Below, piece by piece: positions 68 to 48,003 of a stretch of DNA of 64,000 bases. The stretch spans positions 257 through 64,256 of IMG/VR virus record IMGVR_UViG_3300042876_000238, one strand, 5' to 3'. This stretch comes from a virus (Duplodnaviria > Caudoviricetes). How positions within the stretch are numbered: the first letter of the stretch is position 1; every line of letters begins with the position of its first letter. The position numbers and the translations under genes were made by a program. Below the pieces are notes generated by a model. The model was not told the DNA's origin, searched no databases, and saw only the letters and a program-made list of their open reading frames with translations.

Positions 68-715
68 TTAGCCACAGTACGTCGCGACGATCGCCGACTT
101 CGGCATCTTCGACAACGTCACGGCATCGAGGCTTACCTCATATACCTCGCCCTTCTGCGTCGGAATAGGTTCACCGATGCATTTAGTGCCGATGGGCGCG
201 GTGCCTACGGCGCGGCCGAGTTTGGCACCGTCCCAGCGGTCGGGCAGGACTTCGTAGACGAGGCGAACCGTCGTACTCAGTACCGGCGGGTTCGGGTTGG
301 GCCACGGCACGATGTTCGAGACGACCCCAGAGGCCCGTGACTCCCCACCGCCCGCGGCTGCGGTAGCACGAGAGAAGCCACGATAGCACCACGTACCGGG
401 GGCGACGTCGATGGTCGTGGCCGCGGTCGGTGCCGGGACGATCTTCTCGCCCTGCTTGGTGCCGAAGACGCCGGGCGAGCTACAGGTACCCACCTCGATG
501 CGGGTCTGCGCAAGCTGCGTGATCGTGAGCGGCGTGCCGTCCTCGAACTGCGTCGGGTGGGTCCACGTGACCTCGACCGTGGCGGCGAGCGAACTGACCG
601 CGAAGGCGAGCACGCCCACCACGATCAGCATGAGCGAGCCCAACGCGTACAGCGCGCCGCGCTGCGGGTTGACCTCGTACCAGTTCAGCAGTCGATCGAG
701 CATTTTGTGACTCAT
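68..715 (-). CDS. Exported or membrane-anchored protein with fibronectin type III-like domain
   Basis: N-terminal hydrophobic helix, then FN3-like pattern (VTWTHPTQFEDGTPL...PGTWCY...GESRAS); AGGAG RBS. Confidence 0.6.
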   Translation of the reverse strand: MSHKMLDRLLNWYEVNPQRGALYALGSLMLIVVGVLAFAVSSLAATVEVTWTHPTQFEDGTPLTITQLAQTRIEVGTCSSPGVFGTKQGEKIVPAPTAATTIDVAPGTWCYRGFSRATAAAGGGESRASGVVSNIVPWPNPNPPVLSTTVRLVYEVLPDRWDGAKLGRAVGTAPIGTKCIGEPIPTQKGEVYEVSLDAVTLSKMPKSAIVATYCG

Positions 716-763
716 GGGGGGAGCACTCCTTGAAGCGGAAAACCAGTGTCAGACACCCCCTAC

Positions 764-791
764 AGCGTACTCCCAGCACGTGTTATGTCAA
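764..791 (-). promoter_or_regulatory. Sigma70-like leftward promoter
   Basis: TTGACA-16 nt-TACGCT on the - strand upstream of 68..715. Confidence 0.55.
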
Positions 792-1015
792 GTTTCGGGA
801 AATTTTTGTGGTGGGGTTTTTACGTGTGCTTAGTGCGCACATGGTGGAGTTTTTGCGGGATACGGGGCCGAGGGACCTAAAGCGTACCCCCACCCCCCTC
901 CCCCCGTGGCCCGGTACCCCGGTGGGCCGTCGTGCTTCGGTACAGGTGCGCCGCTGGCTTTCCCCACGCGCGGTATATGAGGGAAGCACACCGCAACCCT
1001 TACGCCGCACTGGCG

Positions 1016-1029
1016 TTACACCGGTGTAA
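1016..1029. repeat. Palindrome TTACACCGGTGTAA copy 1
   Basis: Perfect 14-bp palindrome just before the AGGAG RBS. Confidence 0.95.
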
Positions 1030-1046
1030 TTCATAGGAGCAATCAC

Positions 1047-1625
1047 ATGGCTAAGGCCAAGACGACACAGACCCCCGCAGTTGCCACGCTCACGCAGGCA
1101 AAGGCCGAGCGCATCGCGCGCATCTGGATCGCTGGTGACGCAGCGCTCGCGAAGGCGGGCGGCGAACTCGCTACGCGCATCGCGCAGGAAGCGTCCGCAG
1201 TGTTCGAGCGCAACGCGACGCCGGGCAAGCCGGACGCGGACCTCGTCACGAAGATCGTCGGCAAGTCGCGCGGCTGGAGCGCAGCGTCGCTGAACGTCCG
1301 CTCGTCGGAGATCCTCGCGATCATGCGCGCTCGCACCGGGCTGCCGAAGGGTGTCGCCGCGATCGAGAAGGCGTTTGCTGGTACGTGCCGCTGGAATGAC
1401 GCGGTCAACGCGGCCCGAGCGATCAACGACGGCAAGGACCCCGTTCGCTTCGTGAAGGGCAAGCGCAAGGGCGCGGGCGAGGAGCCGAAGGACGCGGAAG
1501 CCGTGAAGAAGTCCATCGCGATCGCCGTGAAGAAGTGGCTGGAGTGGAGCGCGACGCCGCGTGCGCTCAAGACGTCGCTGCGCCAGATGTGCGGCGAGCA
1601 CCGCATCAACATCGGCAAGGCGTAA
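1047..1625 (+). CDS. Hypothetical early protein (basic, Ala/Lys-rich)
   Basis: AGGAG RBS, strongly biased codon usage. Confidence 0.8.
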   Translation: MAKAKTTQTPAVATLTQAKAERIARIWIAGDAALAKAGGELATRIAQEASAVFERNATPGKPDADLVTKIVGKSRGWSAASLNVRSSEILAIMRARTGLPKGVAAIEKAFAGTCRWNDAVNAARAINDGKDPVRFVKGKRKGAGEEPKDAEAVKKSIAIAVKKWLEWSATPRALKTSLRQMCGEHRINIGKA

Positions 1626-1631
1626 TCGCAA

Positions 1632-1645
1632 TTACACCGGTGTAA
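1632..1645. repeat. Palindrome copy 2
   Basis: TTACACCGGTGTAA between a stop codon and the next RBS. Confidence 0.95.
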
Positions 1646-1665
1646 CTCACCGAGGGAGAACGACG

Positions 1666-1842
1666 ATGCGAGTCGCACTGTTTGAGTTCGACGGCACGCT
1701 GGACGCGCAGGAGAAGATCCTGCGGGAACGCGTGGAGCGAAAGCGCAAGGGCTGGGATCGCCGCACCGCGGAGGATCACCAGCGCTTGCTCGATGTGCAG
1801 CGGGAGAAGGCCCGCCGCATGAAGCGCGAGGCGGGCCGCTAG
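1666..1842 (+). CDS. Small charged hypothetical protein
   Basis: GAGGGAG RBS, ATG at 1666. Confidence 0.65.
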   Translation: MRVALFEFDGTLDAQEKILRERVERKRKGWDRRTAEDHQRLLDVQREKARRMKREAGR

Positions 1843-1856
1843 GCTCGTAGCACGTG

Positions 1857-1894
1857 GGGCCGGAGGGCGTTGAGCCTTCCGGCCCTTTTGCTTT
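1857..1894 (+). terminator. Rho-independent terminator
   Basis: GGGCCGGAGGGC/GCCTTCCGGCCC stem followed by TTTTGCTTT. Confidence 0.8.
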
Positions 1895-1908
1895 GCCCGC
1901 ATGAGTCA

Positions 1909-1922
1909 TTACACCCGTGTAA
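1909..1922. repeat. Palindrome copy 3 (TTACACCCGTGTAA)
   Basis: One central mismatch; extends to ATTACAC..GTGTAAT. Confidence 0.9.
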
Positions 1923-2053
1923 TCTCATATCACGATGTCTCAAAATACCGTGTTACCAGATGTACATCATTCATACGTGTGCGTGGATCGGCGGGCTCTC
2001 GGGCCGAGGGGCCGTTATCATAGGCACGTACATTGGCGCGACGGCGAGGCTGG

Positions 2054-2325
2054 CAATGTGGATATGATGTTTTCGACAAAACCGTTGCAGCGCAAGGGTT
2101 CTACTATTCATTACCATCATATCCACATTGTTTAGAGATACCCTGTGTTTTCAATCGCAGTCCGGGGCATGTGTGTCTTTGGGGGCTGAGTGAATGTTAT
2201 AGGTTACTCGTCCGCAAAAGTGTGGATATGATGGTAATGACCTGAAAACCCTTGCGGCACTAAGGCACCTTGGCACATACTGCGCAGGATATGATGGAAA
2301 TGACCTGTCAATATGATGGTAATGA
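2054..2325. repeat. Iteron-like repeats (GG)ATATGATGGTAATGA x5, candidate replication origin
   Basis: Copies at 2054-2069, 2108-2130 (inverted), 2221-2240, 2287-2307 and 2311-2325 in AT-rich non-coding DNA. Confidence 0.75.
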
Positions 2326-2334
2326 GGGGGTAAG

Positions 2335-2691
2335 ATGCTCGAACGCACCGCCAAATTCACTCCGAAACAGTTTCGCCTGCTCTGTGAGGCCCTTCGGCAC
2401 CACGGCACGAAACTGCGCGCCGACCGCAATCATGAGGCACTTCGTGTGCTGACCATGTTCGTCCGCACCCTCCCAACGTGTGCGCCTTACGATGTGACCA
2501 TCAGCACGCGCGAGTGGCCCATCGTCAGCCGGGCACTGCGGCCCGAGGGCATGAAGCCCACGCCGGGCTCGGACGCCGCCCGCTGGCTGGCGCTATACCA
2601 GTGGATGATCCTGCCACAGAACTTCTATGGCATGCGCTCGTTATCATCCCGCACGCAGCGCGAACAGGACCGCAAGCTCCCCACGCTCTGA
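2335..2691 (+). CDS. Hypothetical protein
   Basis: GAGGGGG RBS, ATG; stop abuts the palindrome. Confidence 0.65.
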   Translation: MLERTAKFTPKQFRLLCEALRHHGTKLRADRNHEALRVLTMFVRTLPTCAPYDVTISTREWPIVSRALRPEGMKPTPGSDAARWLALYQWMILPQNFYGMRSLSSRTQREQDRKLPTL

Positions 2692-2705
2692 TTACACCCG
2701 TGTAA
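2692..2705. repeat. Palindrome copy 4 (TTACACCCGTGTAA)
   Basis: Starts immediately after TGA. Confidence 0.9.
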
Positions 2706-2710
2706 TCCGA

Positions 2711-2801
2711 CGCTGTATCAGACAGCACCCTGTCTTCTCCTACGCTCCCGTCCTGCTCCTTCGGGGGCGCGGGGGCGGGCAGGGTGCTGCCTGATGCAAC
2801 G
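2711..2801 (+). other. Long intergenic RNA hairpin (possible RNase III site or ncRNA)
   Basis: TGTATCAG-A-CAGCACCCTG pairs with CAGGGTGCTG-C-CTGATGCA; inner cTTCGg tetraloop. Confidence 0.6.
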
Positions 2802-2825
2802 TGCATCGCACAGAAGGAGCAACCA

Positions 2826-3599
2826 ATGACTGACATCAAGATCACCAACGAACTGTACCAGCACGTGCTGGGCGTGCTGCTGCGTACACACGGTACGCTG
2901 GAGCGGCAGATGAACGGCACCGCGCAGGACACCTACGAGGTGTGGGAGATGTGCGCCCAAGCGTACGACAAGCTCCATGCCTTGCAGCCCACGGTGCCGC
3001 AGGCCGAAGGGCAGCAGGGCACGAAGCGCTGGGGATGGGATCGGTCCACGCTCGAAGAGATCTTCTTGGCGATGGAAGAGGCGGGCGAGGAGTCGAACTC
3101 GTGGGCGGCACGGCTGCGCAAGCTGTTCGATGAGGTGCAGCACGAGACGAAGGGCAAGCAGATCGCTGGCAAGCTGCGTGCGCTGTCGTACGCATACAAG
3201 TACGACTCGAAGCCTGCGCGTACGTTGTGCGAGGCGGCCGACATCGTCGAGTCGATGTCGATGGACACAGCCCAGTACAAGGCAGCCGGTAAGGCAGCCG
3301 TCGACTCGATCGCGCAGCGTGCGTTCATGCAGGAGGCTGAGGAAGCGGGCGTTATCATGTCGCACCCGGACGCAGCCGAGGCACAGCGCATCGGCGAACA
3401 GGTTGCGCAGAAACTGAACGCCACGCCAGTGCCAAAGACGCGTTGGTTCGTACGCATCATCTCACGCAAGCAGAATGCATTGATCCAGCAGATCGGTGCA
3501 CGCGACTACGCTGACGCGAAGGCGATTTACACCGGTGTAATGGGCAAGCTCGACCTGTCGCGCTTCAAGGTGAAGCTGGTCAGCGAGGTCGAAGAGTGA
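2826..3599 (+). CDS. Hypothetical protein
   Basis: AAGGAG RBS before ATG 2826. Confidence 0.75.
   Translation: MTDIKITNELYQHVLGVLLRTHGTLERQMNGTAQDTYEVWEMCAQAYDKLHALQPTVPQAEGQQGTKRWGWDRSTLEEIFLAMEEAGEESNSWAARLRKLFDEVQHETKGKQIAGKLRALSYAYKYDSKPARTLCEAADIVESMSMDTAQYKAAGKAAVDSIAQRAFMQEAEEAGVIMSHPDAAEAQRIGEQVAQKLNATPVPKTRWFVRIISRKQNALIQQIGARDYADAKAIYTGVMGKLDLSRFKVKLVSEVEE
3527..3540. repeat. Palindrome copy 5 (intragenic)
   Basis: TTACACCGGTGTAA inside the CDS, about 60 nt before the stop. Confidence 0.9.
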
Positions 3600-3730
3600 A
3601 TAAGCTGCACCTGATCTTCGGCCTGTTGTTCAGCGCTGTCGGCATCTGGGCCTACGATCACACAGGTATGGGATTCTCGATCTTCCTGATGATCACAGGC
3701 GCGGCCCACATTCACAGCATATGGAGGTGA
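3596..3730 (+). CDS. 44-aa two-TM membrane protein (not in ORF track)
   Basis: GTGA overlap with upstream stop; MNKLHLIFGLLFSAVGIWAY...FSIFLMITGAA. Confidence 0.6.
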   Translation: MNKLHLIFGLLFSAVGIWAYDHTGMGFSIFLMITGAAHIHSIWR

Positions 3731-4107
3731 GCGTGATCCGCAAGCACATCTTCACCGTGCGCTGGGAACGCAGGGGATGGGAGGCCGTGCCGACGTTCGA
3801 GCGTTACACGTTCTGCGACTGGCCCGAAGACATGCCAGACAACGACGCGCTGCCTGCGATCGGCGTACTCACCGGCCGGGACCCGCACGAGTACATGACG
3901 TCGCTCCTGCCACAGGACTGCAAGGAAGCGCTCTCCGTACTGGCAGGCATGGAGGTCCGTTGCCGCTACAGCAACGACACCAAGGGGCCGTACATCATCG
4001 ACGACCCCGAGTCCCTGTTCGATGAGGATCTCCTGCTGATGGTGGTTGCACACGCATCGGACAAGGAGTTGGATGGCTATCACATGCGAAGGAGAAAGAG
4101 AGTATGA
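3721..4107 (+). CDS. Hypothetical protein
   Basis: ORF in operon; start may be GTG 3733 after GGAGG. Confidence 0.65.
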   Translation: MEVSVIRKHIFTVRWERRGWEAVPTFERYTFCDWPEDMPDNDALPAIGVLTGRDPHEYMTSLLPQDCKEALSVLAGMEVRCRYSNDTKGPYIIDDPESLFDEDLLLMVVAHASDKELDGYHMRRRKRV

Positions 4108-4565
4108 AGAAGCGCAAAGTTCCCCTCACACGAGGGGCGAAGAAGGCCGTGCAACAGGACATGTTCCCGGCACGCAAGAAGCTAGCCGAGGCGGCGCGCA
4201 TCGGGCAGCTAGGTCCGCCTTCCAAGTCCCGCGACCCGAGCGAGTGGCCTGTCATCGCCTTGCAGGGCGAATACAAGCGGCTCGATAAGAAAATCACGGA
4301 TCTGGATGCACGCGTGCAGAGTCTCGCCCATGCCGTCGAGTTGCTGGCCGAAGTCACGAAGCGTGCGGTACCACCGAGACCGGCGAAGGTCTGGTCGTCT
4401 GAAGAGTACATCCGTCTGAGTGGCGAGCATGACCTGATGCTGCGCGTGGATGGAGAGGTGGACTACGAAGTCCTGATGGATGTACACCGGTGTAGCTGGG
4501 ATGAACTCAAGCTGGCACTCAGGCACATCGGCAAGGAGTGGGCAGATGAACAAAAGACTGTCTGA
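4104..4565 (+). CDS. Hypothetical coiled-coil protein
   Basis: ATGA overlap, heptad segment. Confidence 0.65.
   Translation: MKKRKVPLTRGAKKAVQQDMFPARKKLAEAARIGQLGPPSKSRDPSEWPVIALQGEYKRLDKKITDLDARVQSLAHAVELLAEVTKRAVPPRPAKVWSSEEYIRLSGEHDLMLRVDGEVDYEVLMDVHRCSWDELKLALRHIGKEWADEQKTV
4483..4494. repeat. Palindrome copy 6 (12-bp core TACACCGGTGTA, intragenic)
   Basis: Core intact, outer bases differ. Confidence 0.75.
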
Positions 4566-4641
4566 CGCGATCGTTATCATCGCCTGTCTCGCCGCGTTCG
4601 CAGTGTTCGTAGTGATGTGGTGGATCGAACTCACTGATTGA
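4546..4641 (+). CDS. 31-aa single-TM protein (not in ORF track)
   Basis: AAGGAG RBS; MNKRLSDAIVIIACLAAFAVFVVMWWIELTD. Confidence 0.6.
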   Translation: MNKRLSDAIVIIACLAAFAVFVVMWWIELTD

Positions 4642-4651
4642 AGGAGCAACA

Positions 4652-5032
4652 ATGAAACTGACACCTGAACAGGTTTCCCATGTCATGCATGGGCTCAACA
4701 TACTGGCCCAGTCCGTCGGACCGAACACGGCCCGCGAGATCGAGGCGCTGCTCAACACCATCGAGACCAACGAGGTGCACCTGATGCGGCGCGGGCTGCT
4801 GGAAGACGTCAACGCGAAGTTCAATGAACTCTGCGTGCTGCACGACAAGATGCGCGTGACCGTCAACACGTACATCGAGCACGTGCAGAGGGTGTGCACG
4901 CACCAGTTCTGGAAGCCCGACCCGAACGACAGGCATCGCGTCTATCCACGCCGCATCAAGCTCGATAGCTGCCGCCTGTGTGGCAAGGCTGCCGAGCCCG
5001 TGACCGATACGTTGCGCGTCTCCAGTGACTGA
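4652..5032 (+). CDS. Hypothetical protein with C-terminal Zn-finger-like motif
   Basis: AAGGAG RBS; CTHQF...CRLC. Confidence 0.7.
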   Translation: MKLTPEQVSHVMHGLNILAQSVGPNTAREIEALLNTIETNEVHLMRRGLLEDVNAKFNELCVLHDKMRVTVNTYIEHVQRVCTHQFWKPDPNDRHRVYPRRIKLDSCRLCGKAAEPVTDTLRVSSD

Positions 5033-5579
5033 TTACACCGGTGTAAAGGTCGAGGAAGCCGTGCTCGTATGTCAGGGCAGGTATGTCGACCAGTTCGCCG
5101 ACGACCGCAACTACACTGAAGAATTTCACTGGTACACCAACGTGTCACAACTGATCATTCCCGATACATCGATCGAACAGCCGAGCGACAGCTTCATTTG
5201 GTGTACGCCGATCCCGGCGCGTGACTGGAACACGCTCGTGGGGCTGGCAGTGCAGTTCAAGTGCGTCACTCCGAATGGAGTTCTGTACGTGCATCGCATC
5301 GGAGCCCGCAGGCAGCGGATCATCATCGTGCCGTGGCATCCCGCCGGTACGGACACGAAGGACTTGCATAGGGAGAGGGGCAAGGGACACTCGAAGGAGG
5401 AGATCGAGCAGGAGTGTGCATGGCTGCGCTTGATCAAGAACTTCCAGCATCCGATCTACGTGGTGCCGCACGGCGTCACGCTCACGACGAAAGAGATCAT
5501 CCAGCGTTCGATGAACGTGTCGCCGTACCTGCTGCAGAGCCTCGACTCACTGAAGGATGTGCCGGATGATCCATCCTAG
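5025..5579 (+). CDS. Hypothetical protein
   Basis: ORF in operon; start uncertain (5025 or GTG 5061). Confidence 0.6.
   Translation: MTDYTGVKVEEAVLVCQGRYVDQFADDRNYTEEFHWYTNVSQLIIPDTSIEQPSDSFIWCTPIPARDWNTLVGLAVQFKCVTPNGVLYVHRIGARRQRIIIVPWHPAGTDTKDLHRERGKGHSKEEIEQECAWLRLIKNFQHPIYVVPHGVTLTTKEIIQRSMNVSPYLLQSLDSLKDVPDDPS
5033..5046. repeat. Palindrome copy 7
   Basis: Starts immediately after TGA at 5032. Confidence 0.95.
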
Positions 5580-5979
5580 GAAGCGCAGCAAGGAGAAGTG
5601 GCACGACCTGAATATGAAGGATCTCACCGAAGAGGAGCGTGCGTGGGCTGCGATCTACACGCTCCGCTTCGGCATTGATCAATGGGCAAGGGGATTCTGC
5701 GAAGGAGAAGAAGACTTCTTCAATGAGATGTCGCTTGCGCTGTACGGAGAAGTCAAAAGCCCAGCGGCCCATCAGGACAGGATTTGCTGTGCGATGGACG
5801 TCATCATCTGCGCATACAACCATAGAGATACGGAGGGTAGGAACAATGGCAATACCGAAAGGAACGAAGAAGAACTTCGAGACCCTGCAGCTAGCAATGG
5901 CCGCAGGGCACGTGTGCGTGATGGAAGTGCTCGACGGCAAGACCGGCGAGGTGGTCGACGCGATCTGCATGATCAATAA
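5566..5979 (+). CDS. Hypothetical protein, WxAxYxLxFGxD paralog 1
   Basis: Shares motif with 6788 and 7235. Confidence 0.6.
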   Translation: MIHPRKRSKEKWHDLNMKDLTEEERAWAAIYTLRFGIDQWARGFCEGEEDFFNEMSLALYGEVKSPAAHQDRICCAMDVIICAYNHRDTEGRNNGNTERNEEELRDPAASNGRRARVRDGSARRQDRRGGRRDLHDQ

Positions 5980-6100
5980 GGTCGACGACATGTACCAGAT
6001 GGCTCCGATTGCGTTCATGCCGAGGGAGAATCCGTACGACCGGTTCTCGCCGCCGGACCCGAACAACCCGGAGATGTTCGCCACTGGGGAGAAGCACTGA
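5846..6100 (+). CDS. DUF6117-like protein
   Basis: GGAGG RBS; MAIP...NFETL...D.KTGE...IC...NPYD...PP pattern as recalled for DUF6117. Confidence 0.6.
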   Translation: MAIPKGTKKNFETLQLAMAAGHVCVMEVLDGKTGEVVDAICMINKVDDMYQMAPIAFMPRENPYDRFSPPDPNNPEMFATGEKH

Positions 6101-6504
6101 TGCCGTGGAATCAGAAGAACGCACGGTTCTATTGCGAGGTCTACTCTGCGCGCAGGACAAAGGAGGTCATCCTGTCCGATGCGTACAAGGGGCTCGTTAT
6201 CATCGCGGCAGGAGAGCAGGGCATGTTGCGCGTCACGCTGCGGGCTGACGGCATCGAGGAGAAGACCCGAACCGGTCCGCGTGGTGGCATCCACGTGGAG
6301 TCCAGACGGCATCTCGATAAGTTCATGGTCGAGTTCTGCCCGTGGCGCTCGTGCGAAGCGGAGGGCGACCCTGTCGTGATTGCTTCCGGCCCCTTGGACT
6401 TCGATCGCGTGAAGCACGGCGAGGCGATGGTGCGCTTCGACGATCAGGCAATCGAGGTGTACCGGACGATGCGGGCGATCGAGATCATCAAGGAGACTTC
6501 CTGA
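6100..6504 (+). CDS. Hypothetical protein
   Basis: TGATG overlap. Confidence 0.65.
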   Translation: MPWNQKNARFYCEVYSARRTKEVILSDAYKGLVIIAAGEQGMLRVTLRADGIEEKTRTGPRGGIHVESRRHLDKFMVEFCPWRSCEAEGDPVVIASGPLDFDRVKHGEAMVRFDDQAIEVYRTMRAIEIIKETS

Positions 6505-6791
6505 TGCGCGCGTCACCGCACGGCTGGTACGGAGGGACGAGCGGAACTTCCGAGTCATCTCTCGTGTATCCGGACAAGCGCAAGGTCGGCCCTGTCCGGC
6601 CAAGCGCTTCGCCGTACACGGCCCGTGCTCGCACGATCAACGAGATGAACTCTCACACGAGGTTCTATAAGTACTGCATCGTCGACCGCCACAACATCCC
6701 GATCTTCCTGTTCACGACGATCACTGAGGCTGAGTTCGTCGCCGAGAAGATCAATCTCAATATGGCGAAAGCCGTCCTCAGTGCGCCATGA
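6504..6791 (+). CDS. Hypothetical protein, YxxxDRH paralog 1
   Basis: TGATG overlap, AGGAG RBS. Confidence 0.6.
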   Translation: MRASPHGWYGGTSGTSESSLVYPDKRKVGPVRPSASPYTARARTINEMNSHTRFYKYCIVDRHNIPIFLFTTITEAEFVAEKINLNMAKAVLSAP

Positions 6792-7072
6792 GACGAAAGC
6801 CAACCATCGTGATCAAGCAAGGGTTGGCCGAGTTCGATGATGAAGTGATCGAAGAATGGTGGGCGCAGTACTGCCTATGCTTCGGTCCAGACGCGTTCTA
6901 TGGCAAGGCAGTGCCGGGTGAGTACGAGTTCTACGAGCGCATGGCGAAAGCCTTGGGCGTGTCACGCTGGGTAGCCCGGCAACTGCTGAAGCCGTTCGCC
7001 GGGCTGCTGCCAGACTCTTACGGGCACGAGCCGACATCATGCCAGACAAAGACGTTGCGACCTACCCGATGA
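6788..7072 (+). CDS. Hypothetical protein, WxAxYxLxFGxD paralog 2
   Basis: ATGA overlap. Confidence 0.65.
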   Translation: MRRKPTIVIKQGLAEFDDEVIEEWWAQYCLCFGPDAFYGKAVPGEYEFYERMAKALGVSRWVARQLLKPFAGLLPDSYGHEPTSCQTKTLRPTR

Positions 7073-7242
7073 TCGCTAATATCCGTAAACGTGCCCCGTT
7101 CAAGGTCTGGGGATTCTGCAACGTGTACGACCTCATCGATCGGCACGGGAACTTCGTCATCCTTGGTGTAAGCAAGAAGAGGGCAGAGGAGATCTGCGAA
7201 CTCTGGAACACCGAGGCAGCAAAGGAGATTCTGCGTGGCTAA
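7039..7242 (+). CDS. Hypothetical protein, YxxxDRH paralog 2
   Basis: Similar to the C-terminus of 6504; start may be 7069. Confidence 0.55.
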   Translation: MPDKDVATYPMIANIRKRAPFKVWGFCNVYDLIDRHGNFVILGVSKKRAEEICELWNTEAAKEILRG

Positions 7243-7486
7243 ACACACGTTACAGGAATGGTGGGCAATCTACTGCCTGCGCTTCGGCCCAGACGCACTG
7301 AACGATGTGTACGCGAAGGGGGAACGTGAGTTCCTGTTGGAAGTTGCCGACGATCTGGAAGTCCCGCCTCTCAGCGATCTCGGCCTGAGAGACTCAGCTA
7401 ACCCCCGTGCAGGGCATCGTATCGCCGTCATTGCCTTGTTTTCTGATCTACGTATGAGGGAGAAAATAGCGGCCCGCAAGCCGTAA
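7235..7486 (+). CDS. Hypothetical protein, WxAxYxLxFGxD paralog 3
   Basis: AAGGAG RBS, GTG start. Confidence 0.65.
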   Translation: MAKHTLQEWWAIYCLRFGPDALNDVYAKGEREFLLEVADDLEVPPLSDLGLRDSANPRAGHRIAVIALFSDLRMREKIAARKP

Positions 7487-7492
7487 GACTTA

Positions 7493-7540
7493 TTGAGTTT
7501 GTGACACATGTTCGTTATCATGTCCATTACACCGGTGTAA
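7493..7540 (+). promoter_or_regulatory. Sigma70-like promoter with palindrome copy 8 over the predicted start site
   Basis: TTGAGT(7493)-17 nt-TATCAT(7516), then TTACACCGGTGTAA at 7527-7540. Confidence 0.75.
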
Positions 7541-7559
7541 CCGGAGGAGCAAAGAAACT

Positions 7560-8618
7560 ATGAACCTGAAGGAAGCGAAGAACCTCATCAAGACCGTCTT
7601 CAAGACCCAGATCGAAACCGGCGTGCGGTTCGCCATCGAACTGTCGTCCGGCCCCGGCTTGGGCAAGTCCGAGGGTTGTGAACAGGTGGTCGACGAACTC
7701 AGCAAGGAGTTCGGCGAGCCCGTCGCGTTCATCCCCTACTTCCTCTCCACGCTCGAAGCCCCGGACGTCGGCGGCTTCAAGATCCCGACCAAGGACACCG
7801 ACGGCACGCCGATCACGGTCTCCTCTCGCGCCCCGTGGATGCCCCGAGCGAACGCGCCGAAGTACGGCCTCATCCTGCTCGACGAGTTCCGACAGGCGTC
7901 CCACGATGTGCAGAAGCCCGCGGCCGAGTTGCTGCTCAACGGGCGGGTGGGTGAGTCGCAGTTGCCCATCACGTACTTCGTGTTGGCAGCGTCGAACCGG
8001 GAGAAGGATCGGTCAGGTGTGCAGCGCGAACTGGCGTTCATCGCCAACCGCCGCATGCTCATCACGGTCGACCCCAACCTCGACGCGTGGGTGGAGTGGG
8101 CGGAGCGCAAGAACATCCATCACGCTGCCATCTCGTTCGCCAAGTCGCATCCGGGCAAGGTGTTCCAGACGGAGATCCCGGACAAGCCGGGTCCCTTCTG
8201 CACTCCTCGCACGTTGGTGAAGACGTCGTACCTGATCGGCAAGCTCGACATGGCCTCGTTCACCGAGGCTGCGATGGGCTACATGGGTGAAGGCACGGCG
8301 GCCGAGTTCGTCGCGCACTTGCGGGTGGTCGATGAGTTGCCGGACTACGAAGAGATCGTCGCTGCGCCCAACAAGGTGACGGTCCCGACGCGCCCGGACG
8401 CTTGCTACGCAGTAATGCAGATGATCGCCCATCGGGTCGACGGCCCGACGGCATCGGCTGCGTTCACCTACCTCAAGCGGCTGGGGCGTGAGTTCCAGAT
8501 CGCGGGGCTGAAGGCGACGGTGCGGCGTTCGTCCGTACTGATGCAGACGCCTGAGTTCGGGGCGTGGATTCGCGAGAACAAGGACATCGTCCTCGCCGCG
8601 AACCTCGTGAAGAAGTGA
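7560..8618 (+). CDS. MoxR-like AAA+ ATPase
   Basis: Walker A SGPGLGKS, Walker B ILLDE, AASNR, NR motif, TPRT sensor. Confidence 0.9.
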   Translation: MNLKEAKNLIKTVFKTQIETGVRFAIELSSGPGLGKSEGCEQVVDELSKEFGEPVAFIPYFLSTLEAPDVGGFKIPTKDTDGTPITVSSRAPWMPRANAPKYGLILLDEFRQASHDVQKPAAELLLNGRVGESQLPITYFVLAASNREKDRSGVQRELAFIANRRMLITVDPNLDAWVEWAERKNIHHAAISFAKSHPGKVFQTEIPDKPGPFCTPRTLVKTSYLIGKLDMASFTEAAMGYMGEGTAAEFVAHLRVVDELPDYEEIVAAPNKVTVPTRPDACYAVMQMIAHRVDGPTASAAFTYLKRLGREFQIAGLKATVRRSSVLMQTPEFGAWIRENKDIVLAANLVKK

Positions 8619-8755
8619 TCGGCAGCTTCACGAAGCTTTCCCACACTGTGCGGATGATGTTGTTCTGGGCACTCATGCTCATCAACATCATCCTGCTCAG
8701 TGCTGCCGGTTGGTTAGTTGTCAAATACGAGGAAGGAGACAAAGAACATGGCTAA
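8615..8755 (+). CDS. Small single-TM protein
   Basis: GTGA overlap; MMLFWALMLINIILLSAAGWLVV. Confidence 0.55.
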   Translation: MIGSFTKLSHTVRMMLFWALMLINIILLSAAGWLVVKYEEGDKEHG

Positions 8756-9296
8756 GAAGAGAAAGGCTCAGTTCAAGACCCAGACGACGTCCATCGAGAG
8801 TGCCGTCAGCGACGCGTACTCCGGCATGGAGGAACTCAAGGACGAGTTGCAGAACTGGTACGACAACCTGCCCGAGAGTTTCCAGAACGGCTCGAAGGGC
8901 GATGCGTTGCAGAGCGCGATCGACCAGATCGACTGCGCGTCCGAGATCACGGTGCCCGACTGCCTGTGCAACGGCCCGGACTTGCCGGAGGTTTCCTACG
9001 ACGAGTCGGTGAAGACCTCTCGTAGCGCGCGTAGGGATACTTGTGTGTCCATGCTGAATGGCGCAGCCGATGCCGCCCGCGACTACATCGACACGCTCAA
9101 CGAGTTGGAGTTCGACGAGGACGGCAATCGCAAGCGCACACTCACGGAGGGGGACGACGATGTCGAAGAAGACGGGTATCCGACGACCGAAGACGAGCGT
9201 GACTCGTGGGTCAGCGAGATCGAAGACTTTGCCAACGAGTGCGAGAACAACGTCGGCGAGTACGAAGCCGTCGAGTTCCCCGGAATGTACGGCTGA
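8748..9296 (+). CDS. Acidic helical hypothetical protein
   Basis: AAGGAG RBS; ELQNWYDNLPESFQ motif. Confidence 0.75.
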   Translation: MAKKRKAQFKTQTTSIESAVSDAYSGMEELKDELQNWYDNLPESFQNGSKGDALQSAIDQIDCASEITVPDCLCNGPDLPEVSYDESVKTSRSARRDTCVSMLNGAADAARDYIDTLNELEFDEDGNRKRTLTEGDDDVEEDGYPTTEDERDSWVSEIEDFANECENNVGEYEAVEFPGMYG

Positions 9297-9383
9297 TCTT
9301 CCGTACATCTGCGACAACTTCCTTGGCACGGCGCGTGACCCGCGCCGCTGCCACATCTGTCTCAACTTGAGAGAGGTACACAC

Positions 9384-10751
9384 ATGAGCGAAGAGTTTGA
9401 CGAGATCCAAGACATCCTTGCAGGCATCCTTGGCGACAAGCCGAAAGCCCCGGCAGCGGCTCCGCCGCCGAAGGCGGCAGCGAGGGTGGCGACACCCGAG
9501 CCCGACGAGGACTTCCTCAATCTGGATGAGTTCACCCCGGCCCCGGTCGTTATCACGACGACGATCGACAAAAGCGGTGAGCGCAAGCACGCGCTGACGA
9601 GCGGCGTCCTGCCGAAGGGCATGGCACTGCCGGGCAGCGACGAGGACGTCATGTCCATCTTCGACAACCGAGACGACGACTACGGCTCCGACCCCACGGA
9701 AGACGCGCGAATCGAAGCAAGCCTCCCGAAGGGCGACGTCACGGTGGCGATCGACACGAGCGGGTCGGTCTCCGACGAGATGTCGAAGATGTTCGCGGAC
9801 AGCGTCGAGCAGTCCCACATCAAGGTGCCAGTCCCGACGTTCACTTCTGCAGACATGATGCAGTCGTTCGACATCCGCAACTTCGCTACGCTGGTGACGT
9901 TGCAGACGAACCGTTGGCACGCGAAGGTGAAGGACCGGCAGGCGTCGAAGGATGCGGCGAAGGCCAACTCTGCCGACGAGCGTGCGTTCGAGACCCGCAA
10001 GAAGTTGCTGGTCGGTGCTGACAGCATGTTGGTGGCGATCCACAAGGCGATCGACGCCGCACGCATCGAGCACTACGCGATGACCCTGCCGTGGTCGACG
10101 ACTGGACTCGACGACACCGGGCGTCGGACGGGCGGTCGCCTCCTGATGAACACGCTGTTCTTCGAGTACACGCAGAAGATGGCGAAGTACCGGAAGGAGA
10201 TGGAGGACGCGCTCAACGCGTTCGAGCCCGAGTATCCGAACCTGATTGCCATTGCGAAGACCAAGCTGGGCAAGCGGTTCGATCCTCGTGAGTACCCGAA
10301 CCCGTCGGCGATCCGTACGCACTTCAACCTGTCGTTCGACTTCCAGCCGATCCCCAAGGGCGAGGATTTCATGGGGCTGCCGAAACAGCAGTTGGACAAG
10401 CTGGCGCAGCACCTGAACAACCAGACCCAGACGATGCTGGAGAACGCGATGCAGGAGAACTGGGTGCGGATGCGCGAGGTGATCGCAGCGATGGTCGAGC
10501 GGCTGTCGTCGCCCGACAAGCGGTTCCACTCCACGCTGGTGGAGAACGTGCGCGAAGCGGTGCGCCTGACTGCGCATCTCAACGCTACGAAGGACAAGCG
10601 CATCGAGGCGGTTCGCCAGTACGCCGACAAGCACCTGTGCCAGCACGACGCCGAGGAACTGCGGAAGAACCCGACCCTGCGCGTGCAGGTTGCCGGGCAT
10701 GCGCAGTCGGCGATCGACATGATGGACAAGACGGCCCTGAAGAAGCACTGA
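9384..10751 (+). CDS. DUF3150-like protein with acidic N-terminal extension
   Basis: TRKKLL...TLPW...RFDPREYP...IR..F helical domain; sits between the AAA and vWA genes. Confidence 0.7.
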   Translation: MSEEFDEIQDILAGILGDKPKAPAAAPPPKAAARVATPEPDEDFLNLDEFTPAPVVITTTIDKSGERKHALTSGVLPKGMALPGSDEDVMSIFDNRDDDYGSDPTEDARIEASLPKGDVTVAIDTSGSVSDEMSKMFADSVEQSHIKVPVPTFTSADMMQSFDIRNFATLVTLQTNRWHAKVKDRQASKDAAKANSADERAFETRKKLLVGADSMLVAIHKAIDAARIEHYAMTLPWSTTGLDDTGRRTGGRLLMNTLFFEYTQKMAKYRKEMEDALNAFEPEYPNLIAIAKTKLGKRFDPREYPNPSAIRTHFNLSFDFQPIPKGEDFMGLPKQQLDKLAQHLNNQTQTMLENAMQENWVRMREVIAAMVERLSSPDKRFHSTLVENVREAVRLTAHLNATKDKRIEAVRQYADKHLCQHDAEELRKNPTLRVQVAGHAQSAIDMMDKTALKKH

Positions 10752-10765
10752 TTACATCGGTGTAA
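10752..10765. repeat. Palindrome copy 9 (TTACATCGGTGTAA)
   Basis: Between TGA and the GGAGGT RBS. Confidence 0.9.
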
Positions 10766-10778
10766 TGGAGGTAGGAAG

Positions 10779-11981
10779 ATGACAGACTCTGTGAAGCTGA
10801 CGACGTTGAAGACGGCCATGCTCCTGTATGTGCCGTTCTTCGCGTCACTGATGATCGACATTCTGGAGTTGAAGGTGGGCAAGTTCCCCGAGGTATTCGG
10901 GGGACACAAGCCCACGGCAGCGACGGATGGCAAGACGGTGTGGTTCGACGAGGACTTTCTCGACTCGTTGAAGCTGCCTGAAGCGGTTGCCCTGCTGTGT
11001 CACGAGATCGGGCATGTCATGTGGATGCACATGGCCCGAGGCAAGACGTATCAGGACACCGGCTTCGAGGGCGCGCCGTTCGATGCGAGCATCTGGAACA
11101 TGGCGGGGGACTACATCATCAACGATATGTTGGTGGTATCGCAGATCGGTGACTTGCCGAAGGGCGGCTTGCACGATCCGAGGCGTTTCCCGCACACGAT
11201 GTCCGCTGAGGATGTGTACCGTGAGTTGATCAAGAATCCGCCGCAAGGCATGGGCGGCGGTACACCTGACCAGCACGGCAACACGGGTGTCACTCTCGAC
11301 AAGCACATCCTGTCCCCGCAGGCAGTGACGGATCAGGAGATGCGCCGGGCGGTGAAGACGGCGAGCGAAGCAGCCAAGGCGATGGGCTCGATGCCTGCCG
11401 CACTGGAGCGTTTCGTCAACGAACTCATGAATCCGCAGGTGCCGTGGCAGGAAAAGCTGCGCTTCCACGTGGCTCGAAACATCGGCCGAGACTGCAAGAC
11501 ATGGCGCTCGCCCAACCGGCGTAGACTCGTGCTGCAGAAGATCTACATGCCGAGTTACGTGGGGTATCAGGCAGGTGAAGTGGTCGTCGCTATCGACACA
11601 TCCGGGTCGATCGGCCAGAAGGAACTCGATACGTTCCTGTCGGAACTGTCGGGCATCCTCGACGACTGCAAGCCCGAGCGGGTGTGGGTGCTGGCGATCG
11701 ACGCCGCGGTGGCGTCGGTTACTGAACTCGAATCCGGAGCGGACATCGCTTCCAATCCACCTGCGCTGAAGGGTGGCGGCGGTACGTCGTTCATTCCGGC
11801 GTTCGAGTGGTGCCAAGAGAACGGCATCGAGCCCGCGTCGCTCATCTACTTCACCGACATGATGGGTAGCTTCCCGAAGGAAGCTCCATCGTATCCGGTG
11901 ATCTGGTGTGCGACGTACGACTCTCCGCCGCCGTGGGGCGAGTACATCCGCATCAACGTGGGAGGTCGCGATGATCGTTAA
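10779..11981 (+). CDS. DUF2201-type metallopeptidase plus vWA domain protein
   Basis: TAATDG, HEIGH...H, WNMAGDYIIN; vWA VAIDTSGS, GGGGTSF, IYFTD. Confidence 0.9.
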   Translation: MTDSVKLTTLKTAMLLYVPFFASLMIDILELKVGKFPEVFGGHKPTAATDGKTVWFDEDFLDSLKLPEAVALLCHEIGHVMWMHMARGKTYQDTGFEGAPFDASIWNMAGDYIINDMLVVSQIGDLPKGGLHDPRRFPHTMSAEDVYRELIKNPPQGMGGGTPDQHGNTGVTLDKHILSPQAVTDQEMRRAVKTASEAAKAMGSMPAALERFVNELMNPQVPWQEKLRFHVARNIGRDCKTWRSPNRRRLVLQKIYMPSYVGYQAGEVVVAIDTSGSIGQKELDTFLSELSGILDDCKPERVWVLAIDAAVASVTELESGADIASNPPALKGGGGTSFIPAFEWCQENGIEPASLIYFTDMMGSFPKEAPSYPVIWCATYDSPPPWGEYIRINVGGRDDR

Positions 11982-12585
11982 TCCGGGCGCTGATGCCATG
12001 CGCGCAATCATCAAGCGAGATCCGACTACAGTCCTGTCCCGGCTTATCGATCGATTGGAGCTAACGGTTCCGTTCCCGATAGATATCAGAGCGTTCCACC
12101 TCTCGCTGTTCCCGGAACAGTTCATCGCTGCAGTGCACGAGCATGCAGCCTACTCGCAGAACATGCGTGCGGTGTTGACGACGTCACATCAGGTGACTGT
12201 GCACTTAGGGTACGACCGCTTCATTAGACTGTCTCTGGAGTATGGCTCTCTGTCGCCGAAAGAGGAATTTCTGCAGTGTATGAACCATCCACGGCAGGAG
12301 GAGCTAGTCGAATGGCACGAAAAAGCGACGACCTACAACGTCATACTGACGGAGATGCAGGAGACGATGGCCGCCGTCCTGCTCGACTCACACGCGTTGG
12401 GAGCTTGGCCCGAGCTAGCACATGCTGTCGGCATCACGAGACTGCCCAGAAGCAGTACCGCTGCGTTACAGCGGCATCTGGAGGGTACTCAGGGCAAGGC
12501 GAAGCTGGATGCGTTGCTGGCCCAAGCCTCCCTCCTGCCAGACATCAGGGCCCCACACGCGTGGGTCGGGCTGATAGGCAGGTGA
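11971..12585 (+). CDS. Hypothetical protein (WPE motif, possibly Nmad5-like)
   Basis: GGAGG RBS; similar to the next gene. Confidence 0.6.
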   Translation: MIVNPGADAMRAIIKRDPTTVLSRLIDRLELTVPFPIDIRAFHLSLFPEQFIAAVHEHAAYSQNMRAVLTTSHQVTVHLGYDRFIRLSLEYGSLSPKEEFLQCMNHPRQEELVEWHEKATTYNVILTEMQETMAAVLLDSHALGAWPELAHAVGITRLPRSSTAALQRHLEGTQGKAKLDALLAQASLLPDIRAPHAWVGLIGR

Positions 12586-12588
12586 CAT

Positions 12589-13263
12589 ATGGGGCGTAGA
12601 CGATATGGCCCTCGCGTCAAACAAGTCCTCACCAAGATCGATCGTGACGTCAACCGGCAAGTAGTCCTAAGTCGTGTATACAAACTCATGCGACACCGGC
12701 TGTTTGCGATGACGCCGTTTCCTTTCCCCTATCAGGAGGTGTTTGATTTCGTGTGGGGAGAGGAGCGGCTGGCACACATCGTCGCACTACCACGGGACTT
12801 ATTCAGTTACGATCGTAGGTTTCGGTTTGACTACAAGCTATCTGCTGGCGAAGCTAGAAAGGTTACGCTGACCTTTGACGAGCCCGTAATAGTTCTGCGC
12901 AACTTCCAAGTCCTATCAGGAGATCATCTACCTGACTCTATGAAGACAAGCATCGAGGACTGGGTAGTACGGCGCAGGATGGCGACACACGACTATGGAG
13001 TAGTTAACGAGGCCGTGAAGAAGTTACTGGAGACTGCGCGCACATACCGGCAGTTGAAAGGCTTCTGGCCCACGTTCAGTAAGTTCCTAGAGCCGGGGGC
13101 GCGTTACGAGTTCGATAGCGTAGCTCCGACCAAGCCATCGACGTTACTTCTCAACACGTGGGCACAAAGCACAGTGTTAACTCCTGACGAGGTCGATACG
13201 ATGTTGAGCGAGGCGATGCTGCTCGAAGACTTGCCGATGGATGAGTCGGCGACGTACGACTAA
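12589..13263 (+). CDS. Hypothetical protein (TYRQLKGFWP, possibly Nmad5-like)
   Basis: ORF ending before a terminator. Confidence 0.65.
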   Translation: MGRRRYGPRVKQVLTKIDRDVNRQVVLSRVYKLMRHRLFAMTPFPFPYQEVFDFVWGEERLAHIVALPRDLFSYDRRFRFDYKLSAGEARKVTLTFDEPVIVLRNFQVLSGDHLPDSMKTSIEDWVVRRRMATHDYGVVNEAVKKLLETARTYRQLKGFWPTFSKFLEPGARYEFDSVAPTKPSTLLLNTWAQSTVLTPDEVDTMLSEAMLLEDLPMDESATYD

Positions 13264-13283
13264 CACGTAGATCGAAACCTACT

Positions 13284-13320
13284 GGCCCCCGGCGCTTCGG
13301 CGTCGGGGGCCTTTCTTTTT
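13284..13320 (+). terminator. Rho-independent terminator
   Basis: GGCCCCCGGCGC-TTCG-GCGTCGGGGGCC followed by TTTCTTTTT. Confidence 0.9.
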
Positions 13321-13337
13321 GCCCAAAATCGGTCCTG

Positions 13338-13395
13338 TTGACTTCGGCGTTATCATGGGCCACTATTGCGATAAGTCGGTTTTACACCGGTGTAA
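13338..13395 (+). promoter_or_regulatory. Promoter of replication operon with palindrome copy 10
   Basis: TTGACT-17 nt-CACTAT; TTACACCGGTGTAA at 13382-13395 before the GAGGT RBS. Confidence 0.65.
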
Positions 13396-13408
13396 GTGAG
13401 GTGATCGC

Positions 13409-13672
13409 ATGGCAGTCAAGACGAGTAACCCGAAGATGGGCCGCCCAGTGACCAACAAGCATAAGGTCGGCACTCGCCTCTGGGACAAGTGGAGCAACAC
13501 GGCAAAGCGGGTCTTCAACAAGACGTTCGAGCGCATGCTGCGCAACCAGTCGGTGTTCATGCATCCAAAGGCACCGCCGATGTCGAAGGTGCACTGGCGC
13601 ACCGTGGCATGGAACGCAGCGGTCATCGCTGCCTGCGCCGCAGACGACGTCATTTTCGTGGTGCGCAAGTGA
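13409..13672 (+). CDS. Small basic hypothetical protein
   Basis: GAGGT RBS. Confidence 0.7.
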   Translation: MAVKTSNPKMGRPVTNKHKVGTRLWDKWSNTAKRVFNKTFERMLRNQSVFMHPKAPPMSKVHWRTVAWNAAVIAACAADDVIFVVRK

Positions 13673-13989
13673 AGCCTGAGCGCATCCTGAAGGAGGCTGC
13701 GCTCACGTTGCAGCAGCGCGGCGTGGAGCGAGACACCCCGAACGGTGAACGCTCCATGCAGCGTGCAGTCGAGATCTTCCGTGCGATCACGGATATCGAC
13801 CTAACTGAGCGGCAGGGGTGGACGTTCATGCTCGCACTGAAGATGGCGCGCATGACCCGTGGCAAGCCGAACCCGGATCACTTCGTGGATCTGGCAGGCT
13901 ACGCGGCACTGTTGGGGGAGTGTGCATTGGAGGGACGCTTCGATGAAGCCGCCGAAAGCACTGCGACAGATAGTGCAAACCGCGCTTGA
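13669..13989 (+). CDS. DUF6378-like protein
   Basis: EA...RG..D...ERSM...MLALKMAR...DHFVDLAGYAAL. Confidence 0.75.
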   Translation: MKPERILKEAALTLQQRGVERDTPNGERSMQRAVEIFRAITDIDLTERQGWTFMLALKMARMTRGKPNPDHFVDLAGYAALLGECALEGRFDEAAESTATDSANRA

Positions 13990-14140
13990 TAGCGGCTGGA
14001 CCGTGACGAAGACGAAGCGCAGTCACATCAAGCTGCGCGCTCCCTCCGGCGCGATCGTCTTTGCCAGCGGCACGCCGAGCGACGTTCGAGCCGTGCATAA
14101 CCTGAAGGCCATGCTGCGCCGAAACGGGCTTGACGTATGA
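13943..14140 (+). CDS. HicA-like toxin-fold protein
   Basis: GWTVTKTKRSHIKL..PSG....GTPSD.RA..N pattern; GGAGG RBS. Confidence 0.7.
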   Translation: MKPPKALRQIVQTALDSGWTVTKTKRSHIKLRAPSGAIVFASGTPSDVRAVHNLKAMLRRNGLDV

Positions 14141-16011: not shown

Positions 16012-16238
16012 GCAAAGACAACGAACATTTACCGTCGCCCCGCAATAGCGGCAAGGCGTGGACAAAAGACGAAGACGAAATCGTCATTCAGTTAATGAAG
16101 GATGGTAAGTCGTTGTTCGAGATTGCAGGGGAATTGGAACGTACCCCCGGTGCCGTCGTCGCTCGCGTGGAACATCACATCATGTTGATTGCGCAGTTCG
16201 AGAGGTTCCGCAAGATCATCAGCACGGGGGTCATGTAA
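16008..16238 (+). CDS. Myb/HTH-like DNA-binding protein
   Basis: GKAWTKDED...SLFEIAGELERTPGAVVAR. Confidence 0.75.
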   Translation: MSKDNEHLPSPRNSGKAWTKDEDEIVIQLMKDGKSLFEIAGELERTPGAVVARVEHHIMLIAQFERFRKIISTGVM

Positions 16239-19235: not shown

Positions 19236-19609
19236 CTATTGCTGAGAAAGTCAAACAGTACATTCGACTGCGGGACCACAAGCGTGCCGCCGACGAAGAG
19301 TTCAAGAAGTCGATGGAGCGGGTCAACCAAGCCATGAAGGTGTTGGAGTCCGAACTCCACGAAGAACTGATCAAGACCGGGGCCGATCACATTGGTTGCG
19401 AGACCGGTACGGTCTACCTGAAGGAGGAACTCTCCTGCACGGTCGAAGACCGCGACGCGTACTTGGAGTATTGCGTCAATCACGAAGAATGGGACGCGCT
19501 CGACGTAAAGGCCAACAAGACCTTTGTGCGCGAGCTAATGAACAAGGGCGAAACGCTCCCGCCCGGCGTCAAGGTGAGCACGTTTCAGACAGTTGGGATT
19601 CGGAGGTAA
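19223..19609 (+). CDS. Conserved phage replication-module protein
   Basis: AAGGAG RBS; coiled coil and C-terminal PPGV motif. Confidence 0.75.
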   Translation: MASVTIAEKVKQYIRLRDHKRAADEEFKKSMERVNQAMKVLESELHEELIKTGADHIGCETGTVYLKEELSCTVEDRDAYLEYCVNHEEWDALDVKANKTFVRELMNKGETLPPGVKVSTFQTVGIRR

Positions 19610-19614
19610 CTAGA

Positions 19615-20742: not shown

Positions 20743-20756
20743 CGGTCTGGTGAGTC

Positions 20757-20789
20757 GAGCCCGGCGGGGTTGCAGCCCTGCCGGGCTCT
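20757..20789 (+). other. Intergenic hairpin upstream of primase
   Basis: GAGCCCGGCGGGG/CCCTGCCGGGCTC, no U tract. Confidence 0.55.
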
Positions 20790-20804
20790 GTCGCGGGGAC
20801 GGGA

Positions 20805-23880: not shown

Positions 23881-23889
23881 TGTCATCCC

Positions 23890-45037: not shown

Positions 45038-45041
45038 TGGA

Positions 45042-45932: not shown

Positions 45933-45941
45933 GACCTACTC

Positions 45942-46918: not shown

Positions 46919-46931
46919 CACCCTCTCCTTG

Positions 46932-46963: not shown

Positions 46964-46988
46964 CGGTCTGCCCGACCGTCAGGGAAGG

Positions 46989-47978: not shown

Positions 47979-48003
47979 GGTGGATTACTCCTGAAGGAAC
48001 TGA

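Follow-up and report, generated by a model that had tools for sequence, protein, structure and literature searches.

Ten palindromes confined to the early arm of an uncultured phage genome are candidate operators for a phage DNA-binding protein

The early genes of an uncultured soil phage (Duplodnaviria; Caudoviricetes) are punctuated by ten copies of a 14-bp palindrome, TTACACCGGTGTAA. The stretch analysed, here called the window, comprises 64,000 nucleotides and corresponds to bases 257-64256 of the 64,256-base IMG/VR record IMGVR_UViG_3300042876_000238. The sequencing runs listed for this phage are rhizosphere metagenomes, with no RNA run among them. When up to two mismatches were allowed, every copy fell within 1016-13395 (Table 1) and the other 50.6 kb of the window contained none, which bears out the claim of an earlier note on this DNA that the motif belongs to the early region only. 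The same search in 100 dinucleotide-preserving shuffles gave a mean of 0.08 copies and a maximum of 2. Nine copies have both 5-base arms exact, where 0.02 would be expected, and extending the search to the whole record returned the same nine. With modest confidence, we favour a reading in which a symmetric DNA-binding protein made by the phage uses the palindromes as operators or roadblocks and so represses transcription of the rightward early arm by the host polymerase.

Six of the copies are perfect 14-bp palindromes, and among the nine full copies only positions 6-9 vary (CCGG, CCCG or TCGG), in agreement with the fixed arms and variable centre originally described. Nine of the positions listed in that description stood; the remaining one, given as a 12-bp core at 4483, extends to a 14-mer with its first base at 4482 and with changes at both outermost bases. 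In a ~95%-identical variant, represented by metagenome DNA contigs, six differences surround copy 3 and none falls inside the site. The flanks of the window copies are not conserved and, since the sites are also fully symmetric, nothing sets a direction. Avoidance of a restriction site at the ACCGGT core was not seen (18 copies against 21 expected).

The preference for gene junctions was also upheld. On our own gene map, built from open reading frames (ORFs) and third-position GC, eight of the ten copies are fully intergenic, and intergenic DNA makes up 1014 of the 12,380 bases spanned (8.2%; binomial P ~8e-8). The other two (3527 and 4482) lie within coding sequences (CDSs) and three (2692, 5033 and 10752) immediately follow a TGA stop, both as previously reported. 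The count of five copies directly 5' of a ribosome-binding site (RBS), however, has to be raised to six; these end 13-20 nt before a start codon that has a Shine-Dalgarno-like word. Copy 3 ends 12 nt before an ATG without such a word, in a gap of 48 nt between terminator and ATG. Over the whole array, the distance from palindrome to start codon ranges from 4 to 156 nt.

The exact 14-mer was found in 84 IMG/VR stretches, once in each, and five of these are distant relatives. Six relatives, with 23-54% protein identity, each confine a related palindrome of their own to the same early arm. The complete genome G003, whose core proteins are 23-37% identical to those of the window, places 12 of its 13 matches to the arm pattern (at most one mismatch) at 232-15750; a reversed-pattern control gave none, and the G003 consensus is that of the window. 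A variant with symmetric changes at positions 5 and 10 occurs in four copies in two other relatives, G002 and G004. Closer relatives (~50% identical) were found by a profile search with DUF2201. In G006 the version is TTACACAG-S-CTGTGTAA, with eight matches at 20949-33352 (12.4 kb of 46.7 kb); in G007 it is ACACACA-S-TGTGTGT, with seven sites at 43290-52617 (9.3 kb of 63.9 kb); and in G008 it is TCACAC-NN-GTGTGA, with seven sites at 20253-30674 (10.4 kb of 62.7 kb). No match was found elsewhere in any of these three records. The odd-centred versions have a central C or G, in either orientation, and three further loci (L120, L157 and L193) have versions of their own. The early-arm palindrome is a clade trait with a lineage-specific sequence: the scan of related genomes proposed in the earlier note finds it conserved in this form, restricted to the same arm and not uniformly spread.

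The pair G007 and G008 shows how the sites change. Their early arms are 66-81% identical in DNA, yet they carry different palindrome versions at orthologous places. One such orthologous site lies inside the coding sequence of the first gene, and the encoded residues differ accordingly. Between the two genomes sites have also been gained, lost or moved. That all copies in a genome change together can be explained only by a phage-encoded reader or by a change of host. The suggestion that the sites mark the first-injected DNA fares poorly, as in G007, which is complete with 123-bp terminal repeats, the site-bearing arm begins ~11 kb from a genome end.

The imperfect copies in G003 are informative about the nature of the site. 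Each of the 11 has one perfect half-site, with deviations on either arm at the mirror positions 2/13 and 5/10, a pattern expected of degenerate sites for a symmetric DNA-binding protein. The same copies disrupt the 5-bp stem of a potential RNA hairpin at internal pairs. Folding of eight window contexts gave the palindrome's own hairpin in the minimum-energy structure of two, with z-scores between -2.7 and +0.4; a fold matched by fewer than 5 of 200 shuffles was seen in a single context. The predicted RNA hairpin is weak, and so is the case for the RNA-processing hairpin that had been offered as an alternative.

Host-type promoter elements accompany the array. The copy at 7527 covers the expected start site of a sigma-70-like promoter, as had been claimed, beginning 6 nt 3' of the -10 hexamer. 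In addition, an 8-mer, GTTATCAT, occurs eight times on the + strand of the window (2014, 2640, 3351, 4573, 6196, 7514, 13349 and 17363) and not at all on the - strand (simulated mean 0.26); its copies fall in varied reading frames, and two lie between genes. In G006 it is present 12 times (one copy with T for C), always on the early-gene strand. By its sequence, the 8-mer looks like the extended -10 element of host-type promoters that have no -35. Two window sites, 13382 and 2692, lie ~20-50 nt downstream of such elements. In G003 (L104), duplicated modules at 2923-3075 and 3445-3650 each have a near-consensus sigma-70 promoter with an extended -10, followed by a similar structured leader of ~70 nt and then by a palindrome, an RBS and a gene. 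The G003 palindromes lie 83 and 138 nt downstream of the near-consensus promoters, and another lies inside a promoter-like spacer. This varied position relative to promoters fits operators or roadblocks better than it fits a fixed promoter element or an activator site.

Site symmetry, the perfect half-sites in G003, the varied placement at promoters and the lineage-specific versions together suggest a model in which a phage-encoded regulator, dimeric or a dimer of dimers, reads the palindromes on double-stranded DNA. Host RNA polymerase would transcribe the rightward early arm from host-type promoters until the regulator, once accumulated, filled the ten sites. At sites that overlap or abut a promoter (7527, 13382 and 2692) it would block initiation or promoter escape, and at those in stop-to-RBS junctions (5033, 10752 and 1632) it would stand in the way of elongation as a roadblock. 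The result would be a joint decrease in early gene expression and in entry into the replication block. Of the alternatives put forward in the earlier note, a multi-site operator or roadblock network is the one that the evidence favours. Its comparison with stoperators is apt as an analogy. What the analysis shows directly is the sites with their statistics, symmetry, placement and lineage-specific conservation; that a protein binds them, that it represses and does not activate, and which protein it is are inferred.

The likeliest regulator would be a 58-aa ribbon-helix-helix (RHH) protein made from the leftward arm (61353-61529). We name it tentatively, on sequence grounds, as the most likely binder of the palindrome, regarding this as possible rather than probable. 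Besides RHH_1 (Table 1), it matches RHH_3 at 26.6 bits (cut-off 21.6), and its homologues in G006, G007 and G008 adjoin the palindrome-bearing arm. A search of IMG/VR returned 55 RHH loci, of which 29 were examined. Thirteen of these carry the same RHH subfamily, with the strand G-x-R-x-H-x-I/M. In nine of the 13 the DNA upstream of the RHH gene contains a palindrome with an ACA or AAC core, repeated 3-9 times; of the four that do not show it, three extend no more than 1.4 kb in that direction. By comparison, the 16 loci that encode other types of RHH protein all have fewer than four palindrome copies. Between loci L222 and L226 one base per half-site differs, and their RHH proteins differ by H versus R just before the invariant strand arginine, as well as at other residues.

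A second candidate is gpA, the product of the first rightward early gene, a gene that has sites on both sides in the window and in G006, G007 and G008. It is possibly a binder, as had been suggested, or else merely the first regulated gene. Its family comprises at least 151 cluster representatives of 180-195 aa and has no Pfam or PHROG entry; a local profile found it only in the window and these three relatives and not in G003 or G002, and IMG/VR scans for it found nothing. The predicted structure is all-helical (predicted local distance difference test score, pLDDT, 93.3). Foldseek gave no PDB match (best E 0.89), and the best Z of 6.6 in a full-library structure alignment is no higher than noise for helical proteins. 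There is a weak resemblance of residues 97-144 to sigma region 2 (Z 4.6-5.4), and we do not build on this.

The third protein that had been proposed, a Myb/GcrA-like helix-turn-helix (HTH) protein at 16008-16238, was rejected as the binder: it is shared only with G003, and none of the 13 IMG/VR loci with a homologue has a repeated palindrome of this kind.

Several observations weigh against the operator reading or against the RHH protein as its agent. G003, although complete and with the same consensus as the window, has no member of this RHH family at E<=1 with a profile built from a four-row alignment. It also lacks gpA, so that either the binder differs there or the RHH protein is not the binder. 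The RHH protein stands as the best candidate through the association of subfamily and palindrome, but is set back by this absence. The association is in any case confounded by shared ancestry. The presumed DNA-facing strand residues R, H and I are constant across lineages though half-site and spacing change, and the RHH N-termini of G007 and G008 are nearly identical, yet their site spacing differs by one base. As for the sites, a perfect palindrome gives no strand cue by which function in DNA could be separated from function in RNA. The six that hug an RBS would also fit a translational operator, and three lie close to terminators, after or before them, which a pure roadblock model does not require.

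Of the rival explanations, the one that survives best is that the palindromes are sites for a host transcription factor or nucleoid protein exploited by the phage, with versions that differ because the hosts differ. This would account for the consensus shared by the window and the very distant G003 while closer relatives differ, and for the lack of both phage candidates in G003; excerpts of one study also provide a precedent, the binding of the host protein SrpA to palindromes in Pseudomonas phage K5 (PMC5945682). Nevertheless we consider it unlikely. The occurrence of one form in the outgroups G003 and G002 and in the window fits vertical inheritance with later drift elsewhere, orthologous places in the close relatives G007 and G008 are occupied by different versions, and the repeated palindromes track a syntenic phage RHH subfamily.

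It is likewise unlikely, and by a shade more so, that the palindrome acts as a short RNA hairpin 5' of the RBS, either a translational operator or an element for the processing or stability of early mRNAs. The six sites before Shine-Dalgarno-bearing starts and the three that abut the preceding stop are placed suitably for such an element; the symmetric change from A/T to G/C in G002 preserves pairing, and stems would be longer with the versions of G006, L120 and L193. Set against this are the folds described above, in which the hairpin appears in two of eight, and the broken stems of the G003 copies. Moreover, sites close upstream of a start codon number only one of seven in each of G007 and G008 (three of seven were counted in G006), and the window has no Rfam match at gathering scores.

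A third idea, also put forward in the earlier note, is that the palindromes are junctions at which accessory gene cassettes are exchanged by recombination, in the manner of PeSL elements, the mobile promoter cassettes of T4-type phages. The sites do occupy gene junctions, the relatives do not share the small early genes that separate them, and sites have come, gone or moved between G007 and G008. However, only one of 16 ends of alignment blocks in this single genome pair falls on a site, where a block starts exactly, so that the breakpoint comparison lends little support. Fourteen base pairs are short for homologous exchange, and the concerted replacement of all copies in each lineage points to a reader that acts in trans. 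Recombinases of the integrase or resolvase families were not detected: searches of the complete record for tyrosine and serine recombinases were blank with positive controls for both, in keeping with the earlier statement that no integrase is visible. Taken together, we regard this explanation as very unlikely.

The weakest rival turns on the transcription machinery. A 3253-aa protein encoded at 24083-33844 (-) matches the DarB-like (C-terminal half) and LPD39 polyvalent-protein families. Its residues 176-375 match the N-terminal part of a virion RNA polymerase PHROG (E 8e-15), whereas the polymerase part of that PHROG found no match in it and no PDB sequence match to a polymerase was obtained; by these matches it is best described as a DarB-like polyvalent virion protein, not an N4-type polymerase. 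Our first idea, prompted by this ORF, that the phage is N4-like was rejected for the same reason. No RNAPII-like gene was recognised among 30 early and middle proteins scanned against PHROGs, and no sigma-70 region 2 domain was found, with a positive control; a search for a T7-type RNA polymerase (PF00940) was blank, but so was its control. In N4-like phages, according to excerpts of two studies (PMC9163698, PMC4496689), hairpin promoters read by the virion RNA polymerase or by RNAPII have a stem of 4-7 bp or more with a loop of 3 nt (3-4 nt in the LUZ7 middle promoters), and transcription starts 11-15 nt downstream, or 11-14 nt when counted from the hairpin centre. The window palindromes resemble them as several inverted repeats upstream of early genes in the early region only, but have a 4-nt centre, full symmetry and a variable distance to the gene, and neither polymerase was recognised by these searches; on these features they are not an N4-type promoter set. 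That they are compact early promoters, extruded from the duplex as hairpins or cruciforms and read by an unrecognised RNA polymerase within the 3253-aa injected protein, is highly improbable, even though the restriction of inverted repeats to the early arm recalls N4 and LUZ7 (excerpts of PMC9163698, PMC4496689), part of the giant protein does match the PHROG and the 48-nt gap around copy 3 leaves little room for a host promoter: the symmetric sites have no conserved flank and no fixed distance to the start codon, host-type promoters are present and two copies lie inside genes. If true, a second, unrelated podophage lineage would have reached the N4 strategy of a self-transcribing early arm.

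Returning to the operator reading, the array is closest in logic to the stoperators of Cluster A mycobacteriophages, the sites of the L5 gp71-type repressor. Excerpts of one study (PMC9283540) describe these as many copies of a short site, located at promoters and in short intergenic spaces of operons that host polymerase transcribes, where the repressor is proposed to stop both initiation and elongation, with each lineage having its own specificity. The same excerpts describe asymmetric 13-mers, read by a monomer, in one orientation, at more than 20 sites genome-wide, as targets of a temperate immunity repressor (PMC9283540). The window sites are similar in being largely intergenic, with one on a predicted start site and three in stop-to-RBS junctions, but are palindromic, only ten in number and limited to one arm of a genome in which no integrase was found. 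Of four stoperator features the window thus has one, the promoter and intergenic placement, and lacks the asymmetry and orientation, the genome-wide spread and the immunity repressor; among the proteins scanned, neither a CI-like protein nor any product of a lysogeny gene was recognised. With three of the four defining features absent, the array is not a member of the stoperator class but would work like one. On this analogy, a symmetric stoperator-like network, limited to one arm of a phage without a detected integrase, is a fairly probable description.

A small RHH protein encoded in the window, together with short symmetric operators whose half-sites lie about one helical turn apart and would suit two RHH dimers, invites comparison with known RHH systems. 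The RHH repressors Arc and Mnt of P22, CopG and MetJ reportedly act at one or two operators, and we know of no RHH protein for which a ten-site network has been described. In other phages without a functioning lysogeny system, early genes are likewise tuned by specific proteins at a few repeated sites: in excerpts of the respective studies, D29 Gp36 binds GC-rich direct repeats (PMC12266134) and host SrpA a loose palindrome at three sites in phage K5 (PMC5945682). Neither forms a ten-site array at gene junctions. Our literature search, which covered papers without their supplements, turned up no account of either this repeat family or regulation in the clade.

If the operator reading is correct, soil and water podophages of a broad, scarcely studied clade run their early genes via a ten-site operator network. 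To our knowledge, multi-site operator networks of such a kind have so far been described for temperate phages and plasmids. In at least ten lineages, related but distinct palindromes lie beside a tiny RHH protein. These could, if they are indeed partners, amount to a naturally occurring collection of orthogonal repressor-operator pairs with which to study the co-evolution of binding specificity and site spacing, and for use in synthetic circuits. The palindromes also provide a simple marker of the early arm in uncultured genomes of the clade.

Table 1. Coordinates of the palindrome copies and associated features (window positions unless a locus is named).
Feature	Position	Strand	Remarks
Copy 1	1016..1029	.	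Exact; in 330-bp divergent control region; ends 17 nt before first rightward gene start
Copy 2	1632..1645	.	Exact; begins 7 nt past end of first gene; ends 20 nt before start 1666
Copy 3	1909..1922	.	Centre CCCG; begins 22 nt past strong terminator 1856-1886; ends 12 nt before ATG
Copy 4	2692..2705	.	Centre CCCG; adjoins TGA; ~45 nt downstream of extended -10-like 8-mer at 2640
Copy 5	3527..3540	.	Exact; inside 3' end of CDS ending 3599; 55 nt before next start
Copy 6	4482..4495	.	Degenerate, both outermost bases changed; inside CDS 4104-4565
Copy 7	5033..5046	.	Exact; adjoins TGA; ends 14 nt before GTG start 5061
Copy 8	7527..7540	.	Exact; 6 nt past -10 hexamer, covers expected start site; ends 19 nt before ATPase gene
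Copy 9	10752..10765	.	Centre TCGG; adjoins TGA; ends 13 nt before DUF2201 gene
Copy 10	13382..13395	.	Exact; begins 71 nt past strong terminator 13284-13311 and 25 nt past extended -10-like 8-mer; ends 13 nt before first gene of replication block
Sigma-70-like promoter (TTGAGT, 17-nt spacer, TATCAT), predicted	7493..7521	+	Directly upstream of copy 8
Intrinsic terminator, 13-pair stem	1856..1886	+	Upstream of copy 3
Intrinsic terminator, 12-pair stem	13284..13311	+	Upstream of copy 10
Divergent control region	716..1046	.	Between leftward gene 68-715 and rightward arm
gpA, first rightward early gene, 192 aa	1047..1625	+	Flanked by copies 1 and 2; second candidate binder
RHH protein, 58 aa	61353..61529	-	Leftward arm; Pfam RHH_1 27.1 bits (cut-off 20.5)
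Zinc-ribbon-like protein, ~53 aa	L117 ~14562-14723; L119 ~14821-15096; L126 6801-6962		

The rightward genes of the window run from 1047 to 23.7 kb and comprise the small early genes, the ATPase, DUF2201 and replication genes; genes elsewhere are leftward. The DNA polymerase shares 34-36% identity with its counterparts in Pseudomonas phage KPP25 and Rhizobium phage RHph_TM3_14A, and the gene order of the latter matches that of the window. These two are the only named relatives in the clade. The early arm itself gave no match to named phages by megablast, and a single-protein IMG/VR scan gave none.

Within the divergent control region, a C-rich non-coding block at ~880-935 (a run of C, then TGGCCCGGTACCCCGGTG) recurs with its DNA sequence conserved in G006, G007 and G008, although the proteins of these genomes are only ~50% identical. 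In G007 and G008 it lies 10-12 nt before the first palindrome. The absence of Rfam matches reported above includes this block. Just 3' of copy 1, the ~95%-identical variant, from a subsurface metagenome (run X3), has 70 other letters in place of 33 nt within window positions 1041-1075; the replaced segment holds the RBS and the start of the first early gene.

A different palindrome, GTTACC-N6-GGTAAC (16-18 bp), is present in 28 copies in 48.9 kb of RHph_TM3_14A (L112) and in 18 copies in 40 kb of G005 (L107/L108). It has the TTAC half-site start in common with the window motif, and its copies are spread over the whole sequence, mostly within genes. We regard it as a separate phenomenon, its distribution being different from that of the early-arm palindromes.

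In G007, G008 and G010 the DNA polymerase gene is followed by a gene for a protein of ~53 aa with two CxxC pairs, resembling a zinc ribbon; the window has the Myb-like HTH protein at this place. Finally, two sets of direct repeats were noted. Three copies of a 21-nt unit, with spacings of 63 and 22 nt, lie at 2224-2329 in the gap before gene 2335-2691 and look like iterons or sites for a second regulator. The CDS at 19396-20742 holds three tandem repeats of 75-78 nt (20490-20717), which encode a stretch rich in Pro, Ala, Lys and Asp.

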